A DNA stretch of 64,000 nt from positions 4,032,001 to 4,096,000 of the forward strand of contig OZ243938.1 of assembly GCA_965214095.1 (NCBI GenBank), read 5' to 3'. Below, in pieces: positions 43,442 to 47,437 of this stretch. Position 1 is the stretch's first letter; every line of letters starts with the position of its first letter. The notes under the pieces are model-generated. The model ran no database searches. It was not told where the DNA came from and saw nothing but the letters and a program-made list of their open reading frames with translations. Position numbers and translations under genes: made by a program. The DNA is from Candidatus Poribacteria bacterium. GTDB lineage: Bacteria > Poribacteria > WGA-4E > WGA-3G.

Positions 43442-44155
43442 ATGGACAATTGTTGCCACGAAAAAGCAGACGAACTTGAAGAACTCCGAGAGAAACAATC
43501 CAAAACCTTGTGGATTGTCCTTGCCATCAACGGTGTCATGTTCTGTGTAGAAATGGTTGTAGGTATACTGGCAGGTTCAGTTGCTCTGCAGGCTGATTCT
43601 CTTGATATGATGAGCGATACTTTGGTCTACGGATTCAGTCTATACGCAATTGGAAAAAGTTACCGTTGGCGTGCTGGGTCTGCCTTGCTCAAGGGTAGTA
43701 TTATGGCAATCTTTGGTGTAGGCGTGTTGATCCAAAGCTGCTATAAATTTCTCGCGGGTGGAATTCCTGAGTCTAACTTCATGTTTGCCATGAGTTTAAT
43801 CGCTCTGGCTGCAAATTTGAGTTGTCTGATATTATTGTCAAGGCACAAGTCAGATGATATAAATATGCGTTCAACTTGGATATGCTCGCGAAACGACATC
43901 ATTGCTAACTCAAGTGTATTTGTCGCTGCTGCTCTCGTTGCAATCACAAACTCAATGTTGCCAGATGTGATTGTAGGTCTATTAATTACAGGTATCTTTA
44001 TTAAGTCTGCTGTCTCAGTTTTAAGAGATTCGGTGAGAGAATTGCGTGAACCGGATACCCTCCCGACACAAGTATCTGTTGTTAAGTTTGAACCTGTAGA
44101 AGAACTGTGTAGTGCGGGAATATGTCCAGTAAACGCATGCCAGTGTCAGGCTTGA
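43442..44155 (+). CDS. Cation diffusion facilitator (CzcD-like) metal transporter
   Basis: SVALQADSLDM..D, DDINMRSTWICSRNDII..; Cys-rich termini (CCH; CSAGICPVNACQC). Confidence 0.88.
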   Translation: MDNCCHEKADELEELREKQSKTLWIVLAINGVMFCVEMVVGILAGSVALQADSLDMMSDTLVYGFSLYAIGKSYRWRAGSALLKGSIMAIFGVGVLIQSCYKFLAGGIPESNFMFAMSLIALAANLSCLILLSRHKSDDINMRSTWICSRNDIIANSSVFVAAALVAITNSMLPDVIVGLLITGIFIKSAVSVLRDSVRELREPDTLPTQVSVVKFEPVEELCSAGICPVNACQCQA

Positions 44156-44158
44156 AAA

Positions 44159-45370
44159 CTATTCTGATACCAGACCTAAATCAGATGAAATTGCCTTATC
44201 CCAATCTGCTGTAAATTCCCACCAATTTGACATAACCCTATTCTCATACTTGATACCGTTGTTATGTCCAGGCATATTCTGCATCCAGTATATATACCAC
44301 TTAGACTCTATCAGTTGTTGTATCTTATCACGGTCTTTATCGGGAAATGCATACTTCAGTTTGCCATAAGTATCTACATTGACAAGTGTTTTCTTTCCGC
44401 TATTGTCTGGTGTCCAATCTTCAATATCACTTTCAACTAAGGTCATCGTTTCAGTATAGTCATAATGTTTGGTCGTATTCGGTGGCATGTGCGTCCATCC
44501 AGCACGACCAGTAATGAAGTTACCTTCTTTGTCTTGGCCAACAAATCTCTTCCAAAACAGGTCTGTATTACCAAATTGCAGTTGATTGACATGGCTCAAT
44601 ATCGCTTCCAATTGATGTCCATGATTGTGTACCGCTTCTGCATGACTTCTTCTGAAGTTTTGTCCATAAACTGTATATGTTGACTTATAGATGGGTAGAT
44701 CTGTGTTATCTCGATTACTATTGGAAATATCTCCTGTCAATGGACTTGACATGTTGGATTCCCACCAGTTTCTAAAATCCTCTGGTTTATGGATATTCGG
44801 GTCATAGCACGGAAAATCAGAGGTCACACCACCCATCCACATCCATATTTCCTTGACACCTAAATCGTTCACATAATGCTCAATGTTGAAACGTTCAAAT
44901 ATCTTATGGTAATCCGGGGAATACAGCGGCGTGCCATCGGCTAAATGCTGACTGACAGGACCCTTTGGAGTCTGCTCATAAACGGTTATATATTCCACAA
45001 CACGATAACCAATAGAAGGTACTGCTGTTGAGTTTTTATATCCTCTAAATCTGGTGCCTTCTTCAAGCATAAACTTAACCCGTTTATCAAATTGATCTAT
45101 CCTTGTTTTGAGTTCATCAAGGCTTATTTCACCTAAATCCCAAAAGTCCGGTGCTTTTGAAATATCCAGATTGATACCATCAGTAGTAGGCAGAAACCTC
45201 ATAATTACAACAGGTATTTCATTGAGATGTCCTGCTGCAGGAGTCGCTAAATATGGATCAATTTTCTCATAAACTGGCGATATTTCTTCTGCAAATACTT
45301 GTCTGGATTGCGTTAACATAACGATGAACACAACTCCTAATATAAGTGTTTTGATTTTATATATTGTCAT
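44159..45370 (-). CDS. Secreted hypothetical protein with possible zinc-binding motif
   Basis: Signal peptide ending VFA; HNHGHQLE motif. Confidence 0.7.
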   Translation of the reverse strand: MTIYKIKTLILGVVFIVMLTQSRQVFAEEISPVYEKIDPYLATPAAGHLNEIPVVIMRFLPTTDGINLDISKAPDFWDLGEISLDELKTRIDQFDKRVKFMLEEGTRFRGYKNSTAVPSIGYRVVEYITVYEQTPKGPVSQHLADGTPLYSPDYHKIFERFNIEHYVNDLGVKEIWMWMGGVTSDFPCYDPNIHKPEDFRNWWESNMSSPLTGDISNSNRDNTDLPIYKSTYTVYGQNFRRSHAEAVHNHGHQLEAILSHVNQLQFGNTDLFWKRFVGQDKEGNFITGRAGWTHMPPNTTKHYDYTETMTLVESDIEDWTPDNSGKKTLVNVDTYGKLKYAFPDKDRDKIQQLIESKWYIYWMQNMPGHNNGIKYENRVMSNWWEFTADWDKAISSDLGLVSE

Positions 45371-45493
45371 AAAACATAAAAAGAAACCCCATGGCTGTGA
45401 GGCACATGAGGGTATTAAATTGTGTGTTTTACCACTTGGCATTGAGATAAATGGAGTTACATAATGACTCCGCTCAACACATTCAAATCTGAT

Positions 45494-45850
45494 TTATTCC
45501 TCAGCTGAAGCAATAACAGAAGCAGTAAAACGCGGCTTTCCATCCATTTCTTCTATTGCAGCAACAGCATCTGTTAATGCAGTAGTATCCACTTTACCTT
45601 TCTCAACCTTCACAACGGCTTTTTCATCAGCTTGTGAAACAGTCACGACTTCTGTGACACCTGCAACATCCTTAAGTGCAGACTGCACTTTGGAAACACA
45701 AGAGCCTCAAGCCAGACCTGTTACGGCTAAGCTGATTTCTTCAACAACAATGTCTGCAGTTTGATTTTCTGCTGTGTCTTCTTTCTGCTGATTTGCACAA
45801 CCAAAGGCAACAAGCATCAAAACCACGATAAAAAACGATTTCTTCAACAT
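45494..45850 (-). CDS. Selenocysteine-containing HMA (MerP/CopZ-like) lipoprotein, 118 aa, Sec48
   Basis: ATG 45850 MLKKSFFIVVLMLVAFGC..., then AVTGLA-TGA(45707-45709)-GSCVSKVQSALKDVAGV in frame; UGA occupies the first Cys of the GxxCxxC motif. Confidence 0.85.
45674..45690 (-). promoter_or_regulatory. Candidate bacterial SECIS hairpin
   Basis: AAGTGCA-GTC-TGCACTT starting 16 nt after UGA. Confidence 0.75.
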
Positions 45851-46013
45851 TTCTTATATGTCCTCATAATAAGATAGATTATAAACACAATTAAGGATAC
45901 TTATTAGGTTTATAATCTATCTCAATCAATTTGCCTCAATCATCTTATGACAATCAAGCAATATATGTAAAAAGTATCAGATGAAGGACGGTTTAACTCG
46001 TCCTACAAGACTA

Positions 46014-46400
46014 TTAATTGGCAATAGATGCGGTAAAGCGAGCATCGGCATCATCAATTGCTTTGATGATGGTATCGTTTGTAACTTTGCCCTTTTCCAC
46101 CTTAACGACGACCAATTTTGTTTCTCTGGAAACACTGATGATCTCTTCTACACCCGTGACCTTCTTTAGTGCAGACTGCACTATGGCGGGACACGAACCT
46201 CATGTCATGCCCTCCACCTGAAAAGTCACTTCCTGATACATAGGTTTTTCTGCTGTTTTTTCCGTGGTTTTTTCCATCGGTGTTTCACCAGCGGCCATTT
46301 CGGTCTCTTCAGCCATTTCTGCTTCTTGACCCATCATAGCACAACCTGTCAGGAGTGCAAAGGTAACGAGAGTAATCAGCGCAAATTTCGCGATATACAT
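46014..46400 (-). CDS. Selenocysteine-containing HMA (MerP/CopZ-like) lipoprotein, 128 aa, Sec67
   Basis: AGGAGG RBS, LLTGC lipobox, FQVEGMT-TGA(46200-46202)-GSCPAIVQSALKKVTGV...RFTASIAN-TAA in frame. Confidence 0.88.
46167..46183 (-). promoter_or_regulatory. Candidate bacterial SECIS hairpin
   Basis: TAGTGCA-GTC-TGCACTA starting 16 nt after UGA. Confidence 0.75.
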
Positions 46401-46521
46401 CGTTATACCTCCTTTGTTATTTACATAACTATGTTATCATATTGAAATATATATTGTCAAGTTAATTATTTGGAATATAGGGTGTTTCTGGTGAAGTATA
46501 AGAATAATTGGACACACCACC

Positions 46522-46640
46522 GTAGGAGCGATCTCAGAATCGCGACATAACACAGTGATAATCGGGAATCGGAGTTCCCTCCTACACATCCAAAATCTAA
46601 AAGAAAATAAACCGTTCGTAGTCGCGCAATTCATTGCGAC
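46522..46640. repeat. Cluster of three GTAG-type REP palindromes
   Basis: GTAGGAGCGATCTCAGAATCGCGAC (46522), minus-strand GTAGGAGGGAACTCCGATTCCC (46564-46585), GTAGTCGCGCAATTCATTGCGAC (46618). Confidence 0.75.
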
Positions 46641-46642
46641 TT

Positions 46643-47437
46643 TTACATTATCTGACTTAATGAGAGCAGTGAATTTTCAACTCTTTTTCTGTTGGAATGT
46701 TCTCTATGAGCATCAAGGAAGGGAAAGATTTTCTGAAGACGTAAAAGCTGCTTTTGAACAGCTGCAGCTCTTTCAAATTGCAGTAATGCCGAAGCCGAAT
46801 TTCGTTTAGCAACCAAATTCTCTTGAACTCTTAGATAGTTGCCATCAAGCAAATGGATGATATTCATTATCGTTTCACTATAGAGTTCTTGAGTGATGCG
46901 TGCAGCACAAGGCGCATAACATCGCTTCATATCATATTGTAGACAGGCACGGTATCCTTCTTGCGGTGTGATGCTACCTTGACAAGTGCGCACCATAAAG
47001 ATACGTTGCAACACATCAATTGCCTCATCCGTCCATCTTCGACTGGAAAGTGGCCCGAAGTATCTCGCTTCATCATTATAAATCTCAGGGACTCTCTCAA
47101 GAAGTGGAAAATCATCTGCAACATTGATGCGAATATACCAAGTCTGCGTGCCATACTTCAACGCAGAATTATAGGTGGGTTGGTGTTCTTTAATAAGACG
47201 CGATTCAAGAAACAGTGCTTCCTGTTCCGATTGACACACATGATAATCTACAGACGCTGTCCATCTGATTAATCGTTTGATCTTGGAACGACGTTTCTTA
47301 ACTTTATGCACATAAGAACGGACACGTTTACGTAGACATTTTGCTTTACCTATGTACAAGATCTTACCTGATGCACCATAGAAAAAGTAGACACCTGGAT
47401 CCATTGGGATGTCTTGGACCATATCTTTCGTTAGCAT
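46643..47437 (-). CDS. GIY-YIG nuclease, UvrC N-terminal/Cho-like
   Basis: PGVYFF...LYIGKAKCLRKRVRSY, EALFLE, P.YN, YFGP, Cys cluster and UVR helix. Confidence 0.88.
   Translation of the reverse strand: MLTKDMVQDIPMDPGVYFFYGASGKILYIGKAKCLRKRVRSYVHKVKKRRSKIKRLIRWTASVDYHVCQSEQEALFLESRLIKEHQPTYNSALKYGTQTWYIRINVADDFPLLERVPEIYNDEARYFGPLSSRRWTDEAIDVLQRIFMVRTCQGSITPQEGYRACLQYDMKRCYAPCAARITQELYSETIMNIIHLLDGNYLRVQENLVAKRNSASALLQFERAAAVQKQLLRLQKIFPFLDAHREHSNRKRVENSLLSLSQIM

Follow-up and report, generated by a model that had tools for sequence, protein, structure and literature searches.

A conserved tandem pair of probable selenocysteine-containing HMA lipoproteins, hidden by in-frame UGA codons, in Candidatus Poribacteria

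Two neighbouring genes of a Candidatus Poribacteria bacterium (GenBank assembly GCA_965214095.1), referred to here as gene A and gene B, are each interrupted by a TGA codon that is almost certainly read as selenocysteine (Sec), which would leave the genes intact rather than cut short. Both very probably encode real selenoproteins, namely exported, lipoprotein-type binders with an HMA domain and Sec at the metal site. The genes lie on the minus strand in the region 45494-46400 of the window, by which is meant the whole stretch of 64,000 nucleotides (nt) that was analyzed (contig OZ243938.1, positions 4,032,001 to 4,096,000), and coordinates follow the numbering of the window unless another record is named (Table 1).

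Under the standard code (table 11), gene A is broken into 46200-46400 and 46014-46181 and gene B into 45707-45850 and 45494-45688. Read through the TGA, the frame of gene A continues as ..VEGMT-U-GSCPAIVQSALK.. and that of gene B as ..AVTGLA-U-GSCVSKVQSALK.., and the Pfam profile of the HMA domain (PF00403, cut-off 24.8 bits) matches across the TGA in both, with 40.8 bits for gene A and 29.9 bits for gene B when Cys is placed at the TGA. The two products share 39% protein identity and are hence diverged paralogues. A preliminary description of this DNA, made from the sequence alone, had placed the TGA of both genes at the first Cys of the HMA metal site, and this agrees with the Pfam matches; the coordinates and peptides that it gives are likewise found in the sequence, as are the lipoboxes AFGC and LTGC and, in gene A, a linker rich in Met and Glu.

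Table 1. Features of the gene pair and its surroundings in window coordinates (aa, amino acids; ORF, open reading frame).
Feature	Position	Strand	Description
Gene A	46014..46400	-	128 aa; signal peptide, lipobox Cys20, Met/Glu-rich linker, HMA with U-G-S-C site; read-through ORF
UGA of gene A (Sec67)	46200..46202	-	First Cys position of GMxCxxC
Signal peptide and lipobox L-T-G-C (Cys20) of gene A	46341..46400	-	From sequence
SECIS-type hairpin, gene A	46168..46182	-	6-bp stem, 3-nt loop starting with G, 18 nt after UGA; overlaps V-Q-S-A-L codons
Gene B	45494..45850	-	118 aa; signal peptide, lipobox Cys18, short acidic linker, HMA with U-G-S-C site; read-through ORF
UGA of gene B (Sec48)	45707..45709	-	First Cys position of HMA GMxCxxC loop
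SECIS-type hairpin, gene B	45675..45689	-	Sequence identical to gene A hairpin
Promoter-like TTGACA, 18-nt spacer, TG-extended -10 and AAGGAGG ribosome-binding site	46408..46460	-	Upstream of gene A; consensus scan
Inverted repeat	45872..45922	.	20 nt, 90% complementary, 11 nt between arms; A-B spacer
Downstream secreted-domain gene	44159..45442	-	427 aa
Cation-efflux CDF gene (PF01545)	43442..44155	+	Convergent to 427-aa neighbour gene

The TGA is conserved across Poribacteria. A six-frame search that covered 60 relatives showed that 35/36 other genomes of the same genus have a gene A orthologue of full length and with a single TGA, the sole exception being a genome that is 73% complete (G025); a second TGA-bearing match adjoins gene A in most genomes, and the other three families of the order likewise have TGA-bearing matches. 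In a profile search of 176 genomes of the phylum, 164 had a match, with matches in 157/158 genomes from the four families of the own order and in 6/17 genomes from the remaining families, and among the 150 rows listed, 149 have one TGA and one has none. The preliminary description had considered two nonsense mutations at the same codon unlikely, and because the TGA is conserved in 35/36 same-genus genomes and in 149/150 of the rows listed phylum-wide, a chance origin is excluded. It had also proposed to look at this codon in relatives: in the related loci that were fetched, distinct HMA-loop sequences have kept TGA in 152/159 cases and have TGT or TGC in the other 7. Within the aligned Sec forms the TGA column is invariant and the codon of the second ligand is always Cys (TGT/TGC; 149/149 for both), and at the position of the UGA of genes A and B, Cys is found both in the HMA profile and in homologues of solved structure.

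Genes A and B show the full set of sequence signals for Sec insertion through SelB. Bacterial selenocysteine insertion sequence (SECIS) elements have a usual spacing between UGA and hairpin; in both genes, a short SECIS-type hairpin follows the UGA (Table 1). None of the 149 distinct Sec forms lacks it, and in their ungapped alignment the RNAalifold consensus is exactly this helix, with 98.4% of cells paired as compared to 8-53% in slid controls. One stem pair changes from A-U to G-C in 4 sequences and to G-U in 3. The third position of the stem Val codon is G in 149/149 and that of the stem Ala codon is A in 148/149 sequences, the loop always starts with G (149/149), and fourfold sites a few codons beyond the stem are mixed (e.g., C62/T60/A17/G10); these frozen synonymous sites are stronger evidence for the hairpin than covariation. 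Moreover, the hairpin is lost in 7/7 Cys forms, by a synonymous change of GTG to GTA, by a Q-to-K replacement or by a different helix-1 sequence. Throughout the genome, UGA followed by this hairpin occurs three times, in genes A and B and in a third HMA domain (discussed below), and not once in a reversed control. Scanned against Rfam at E<=10, the stretch 45300-46700 yielded noise only and no SECIS family.

The genome, which has 5.25 Mb and is 94.5% complete, encodes the machinery to decode these codons, for which the preliminary description had suggested a search. selA (616 bits), selB (355 bits), selD (361 bits) and, directly after selB, the gene for tRNA-Sec (78.1 bits) were all found over their curated cut-offs, and ARAGORN reports a tRNA-SeC with anticodon TCA. 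selD (G000:C1:1272212-1273138, outside the window) itself holds one in-frame TGA, hence its product is probably a Sec-containing selenophosphate synthetase. A general reassignment of UGA, which the preliminary description had named as a possible objection, is contradicted, as TGA still terminates ordinary genes of the window: among 40 ORFs of at least 250 aa, TGA is the stop codon of 5, TAA of 24 and TAG of 11.

Both genes are also represented in RNA libraries, where contigs from 4 runs of 3 studies cover 45484-46402. The contigs bridge the TGA of gene B, and no variant letter is listed at either TGA; among the RNA pieces listed (32 of 108), none has at least 31 letters on both sides of the TGA of gene A. 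Contig ends fall near 45484-45497 and 46399-46402, and the depth is highest around the conserved UGA/SECIS stretch, where it is probably a sum over many strains and paralogues and gives no information on the level of expression.

For the product of gene A, AlphaFold2 (AF2), run on the family alignment, predicts an N-terminal helix that corresponds to the signal peptide (residues 3-21), a disordered linker (residues 23-49, pLDDT <50) and a beta-alpha-beta-beta-alpha-beta domain (residues 55-126, block-mean pLDDT 84-95), with strands (E) and helices (H) in the order E55-63, H70-79, E84-91, E96-102, H108-118 and E123-126. The metal loop precedes helix 1, as in the HMA fold, to which the predicted domain conforms. 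The closest solved structure is MerP of Ralstonia metallidurans (1osd; TM-score 0.94, root-mean-square deviation 1.0, 36% identity), followed by the metal-binding domains of copper ATPases and by CopZ/Atx1 chaperones; a second MerP structure, 1afi, is also listed, and in total 53 solved chains of HMA type match at E<=0.001. The exported, lipoprotein-type nature of the proteins, as claimed in the preliminary description, is upheld by a signal peptide and a lipobox that reads ..LLTGC in gene A and ..VAFGC in gene B, the Gly-Cys of which (G19, C20) is invariant in 28/28 aligned A and B sequences. lspA is present in the genome with 118.3 bits, over its cut-off, and an lgt-like match reaches 100.1 bits, just below the cut-off of 118.9. 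The linker of gene A varies in sequence but has Met at three fixed places: counted by eye in 29 orthologue rows of the same genus, Met is the second residue after the lipid Cys in 28/29, part of an 'AEM' block in 27/29 and part of a 'T-x-M' block in 29/29. The linker of gene B is acidic, Gln/Thr-rich in relatives and lacks the fixed Met of gene A.

From these features, a pathway for the two proteins can be proposed. SelB with Sec-tRNA(Sec) would be recruited by the hairpin, which begins 18 nt downstream of the UGA and is embedded in the helix-1 codons (V-Q-x-A-L), and the product would then be exported by the secretory (Sec) pathway and lipidated at the lipobox Cys, so that a flexible linker of 20-35 residues would tether the domain on the periplasmic side of the membrane. 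The metal loop of the HMA (ferredoxin-like) domain would present Sec-x-x-Cys in place of Cys-x-x-Cys, the selenolate/thiolate pair may bind a soft metal ion, and the proteins could buffer, scavenge or pass on this metal in the periplasm. Selenolate has a low pKa and is soft, and for these reasons the site would stay active in an oxidising compartment. As to the metal, Cu(I) is favored, at slightly less than an even chance, because the linker of gene A keeps 3-4 Met at fixed places and a mer system is absent; periplasmic copper proteins have Met-rich Cu(I)/Ag(I) motifs, which the Met of the gene A linker resemble. Binding of Hg, Cd or Ag, mixed binding or broad scavenging is conceivable but appreciably less probable. 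These estimates for the role of the proteins, including those for a redox or MerP-type function given below, are rough and overlapping and do not form a partition. Of the Hg/Cu/Ag role put forward in the preliminary description, we still infer a soft metal, and mercury is weakened, because the genome lacks MerT and has no MerA above the cut-off.

A number of observations weigh against this reading, in particular against its functional part. In 80 related loci fetched from public records, the conserved neighbours are a GIY-YIG gene (72/80), a PhyH-family dioxygenase (76/80) and a sulfatase (57/80), no metal-resistance operon was found among them, and a CDF efflux gene is near the pair in only 5/80 loci. 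Both proteins also score below the curated cut-offs of MerP, CopZ, NF041115 and NF045683, hence membership in a family does not reveal the metal. As for Sec decoding, covariation in the hairpin is thin, with compensatory change in 1/6 pairs, because the stem is nearly invariant. The pN/pS ratio (nonsynonymous to synonymous polymorphism) of 0.55 for the 24 codons after the TGA of gene A (406 orthologue pairs) is not decisive, since the SECIS itself depresses synonymous change there. Finally, RNA libraries can hold DNA, and the contigs show presence and not the level of expression.

The most radical alternative is that the TGAs are not Sec codons at all, but fixed nonsense mutations, assembly errors that leave stubs, or the result of general TGA reassignment. 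It can draw on the protein databases, in which 5.8 billion clustered proteins include 6 relatives of gene A, none of them named, of which 3 have W at the Sec column, as misreads of TGA as Trp, and 3 are truncated or frame-shifted stubs. However, this explanation is already contradicted and has hardly any probability left: in the 152/159 distinct sequences that retain TGA, the downstream frame and the HMA profile are conserved, the loss of the dedicated hairpin coincides exactly with the replacement of Sec by Cys, the genome has the full Sec machinery, TGA ends 5/40 long ORFs of the window, and the RNA-library contigs retain the TGA.

Two further alternatives accept Sec and differ in function. 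As MerP equivalents, the selenoproteins would bind Hg(II) in the periplasm and deliver it to a system for mercury uptake and reduction, which would be in line with MerP as the best solved match, with an E-value of 6.5e-13 for gene A against the MerP model TIGR02052, and with the very high affinity of selenolate for Hg. Yet the same model gives 49.0 (A) and 30.8 (B) bits against a cut-off of 92.55, MerT (PF02411) has 0 matches although the genome is nearly complete, the best match to the MerA model reaches 383 bits against a cut-off of 454.45 and is probably another flavoprotein disulfide reductase, and no mer genes occur among the conserved neighbours, so that a MerP-type function is considered unlikely. 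Most bacterial selenoproteins are redox enzymes, and the UxxC site might accordingly act as a periplasmic selenol/thiol oxidoreductase that reduces metal ions or partner disulfides. In published selenoprotein tables, UxxC is the typical redox motif of many listed families (PMC13188914; PMC9312934), and the fusion of the third Sec-HMA domain to a haem c-type module with CxxCH and to a WD40 propeller hints at electron transfer. Nevertheless, the fold is that of HMA and not thioredoxin-like, the context of the loop (G-M-T-U-x-x-C) is of the metal-binding type and no partner reductase is encoded nearby, and an oxidoreductase is thus rather improbable. The preferred reading hence remains that of lipid-anchored proteins which would bind a soft metal through Sec and Cys.

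Outside the coding frames, the promoter-like element upstream of gene A is of sigma-70 type with 10/12 consensus matches plus TG, and its TTGACA, ATATGATA..AT and AAGGAGG blocks are conserved in the upstream regions of 29 orthologues from the same genus; a clear palindromic operator was not apparent in this stretch (46408-46460). The inverted repeat in the A-B spacer overlaps a TATAAT-like string and could be a terminator of A or an operator of B. The CDF gene of the window is Cys-rich at its ends, with ..NCCH.. at the N-terminal and ..CSAGICPVNACQCQA at the C-terminal end.

The secreted-domain gene downstream of the pair is found at this place in 27/80 loci and has no family in Pfam or NCBIfam. 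In one relative (L041, 1982-3382) gene B is fused in frame to the domain of this neighbour, and in another (L045) the frame of gene B continues for ~470 codons to the edge of the locus. The neighbour has 429 homologues, of which the named rows among 120 listed include Bacteroidota, Gammaproteobacteria and Gemmatimonadales, and many homologues are fused to Big_2, LamG or type IX secretion system (T9SS) sorting domains. H225, G228, H229, Q230 and E232 are invariant, and the AF2 model has a pLDDT of 92.4. The protein is not called a protease here, as Foldseek matches to metzincins of the PDB are weak (best E 9.1e-4, TM 0.25-0.34), and the best VIA-align Z of 6.3 is within the range of chance arrangements.

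Other Sec-HMA proteins were observed in Poribacteria. The third one of the same genome (G000:C1:648559-650150, outside the window; L133:1492-3087, minus strand) is a protein of 531 aa that combines a signal peptide and a haem c-type motif (CxxCH) with WD40-like repeats; its HMA domain, at the C-terminal end, reads ..SGMT-U-SAC.. and has the same hairpin after the UGA. Frames of the same kind with 510-570 aa exist in relatives. Some Poribacteria in addition encode multi-HMA proteins (L113:6142-7100; L114; P0128, P0130), the first domain of which has Sec, while the next 2-3 repeats have Cys (..VTGMTCEACPAKVEAAL..) and no hairpin; the database entries of these proteins start just after the UGA. 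It is tempting, albeit doubtful as a whole, to see in the two Sec-HMA lipoproteins and the Sec-HMA/haem c/WD40 protein, which share one helix-1 SECIS, a lineage-wide, selenium-based handling of metals in the periplasm, for which Sec would have been selected, with a selenolate site that stays reduced and metal-competent in the oxidising compartment. SelA and SelB are reported to be enriched in sponge symbionts (PMC5649159), and a lineage-wide demand of this kind, if true, would help to explain the enrichment.

The gene pair is nearly absent from protein databases. From a profile search against 1.84 billion representative proteins, 9 of the 150 top-ranking entries were inspected: 6 are pieces of Poribacteria type, 4 of them starting just after the UGA or further inside the first domain and 2 being Trp misreads, and 3 are Cys-type multi-HMA proteins. 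Because gene callers stop at UGA, a conserved pair of envelope proteins has thus been invisible to annotation-based studies. Nothing relevant was found in literature text on MerP-like or HMA-domain selenoproteins, although paper supplements may still list such proteins; the words PF00403, HMA, lipoprotein, metallochaperone, sponge and Poribacteria do not occur in the review PMC13188914 (2026), and the literature on Poribacteria and selenocysteine, by its titles and the starts of its abstracts, includes none about HMA proteins. The pair is conserved, apparently well promoted and comes from a major phylum of sponge symbionts, and it supplies specific selenoproteins to go with the Sec-synthesis genes that are reportedly enriched in these symbionts. 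It further offers a natural comparison of Sec and Cys in one fold, including 7 natural Cys revertants, which could show what selenium adds to an extracytoplasmic metal-binding site. The gain is limited, as Sec-HMA domains are already predicted in other lineages, where they are known from prediction alone. Sec in HMA is already known computationally from the UxxU proteins of NF041115 and presumably from P-type ATPases, and what is new is a family-level variant that is lipid-anchored, has UxxC, occurs as tandem paralogues and is Poribacteria-wide.

Among known systems, the cytoplasmic CopZ/Atx1 chaperones (NF047957, NF033795, TIGR00003), which are not known to have a signal peptide, share with genes A and B the HMA fold and a loop of GMxCxxC type (E 1e-11 to 1e-12), but their models have a Cys-only loop, and both proteins score below every curated CopZ cut-off. 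MerP (TIGR02052; 1osd, 1afi) consists of one HMA domain in the periplasm and gives the best match in structure, yet it has Cys and is soluble, in contrast to the Sec-containing and lipobox-bearing products of genes A and B, which fall short of its equivalog cut-off; of its mer operon partners, MerT has no match in the genome and MerA none above the cut-off. Published selenoprotein tables list, among others, a UxxC 'cation-transporting ATPase', a UxxU metal-binding protein, a MerT-type protein and a 'UGSC-containing protein' (PMC13188914; PMC9312934; PMC1976440). The last of these, NF041046, is not among the NCBIfam matches of genes A and B at E<=0.1 and shares with them only the four-letter motif. 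The 'MerT/CopZ fusion-like heavy metal transport selenoprotein' NF045683 aligns with its profile positions 151-229 to the HMA domain of gene A, but scores of 38.0 (A) and 24.2 (B) bits compare with a cut-off of 375, and the MerT membrane part is absent. The cation-transporting ATPase is listed with the same motif, UxxC, and its Sec presumably sits in the N-terminal HMA domain; the Sec domain would then belong to the cytoplasmic part of a pump, at its N-terminus, whereas genes A and B encode stand-alone exported lipoproteins, and the CopA-like ATPase of the present genome has Cys in its HMA loop (GMHCEGC).

Close by profile is NF041115, 'UxxU_metal_bind', which is the best or second-best NCBIfam match of genes A and B, and a protein of this type appears in selenoprotein tables as 'putative mercuric reductase' (PMC9312934; PMC13188914). 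What they have in common is a small domain of HMA type, the metal loop of which has Sec as its first ligand. With 51.3 (A) and 39.2 (B) bits against a cut-off of 95, however, genes A and B fall short of the threshold of this family, and where its loop is U-x-x-U, their second ligand is Cys in 149/149 Sec forms. NF041115 is, moreover, a profile of 74 positions, to which genes A and B add a signal peptide, a lipobox and a linker.

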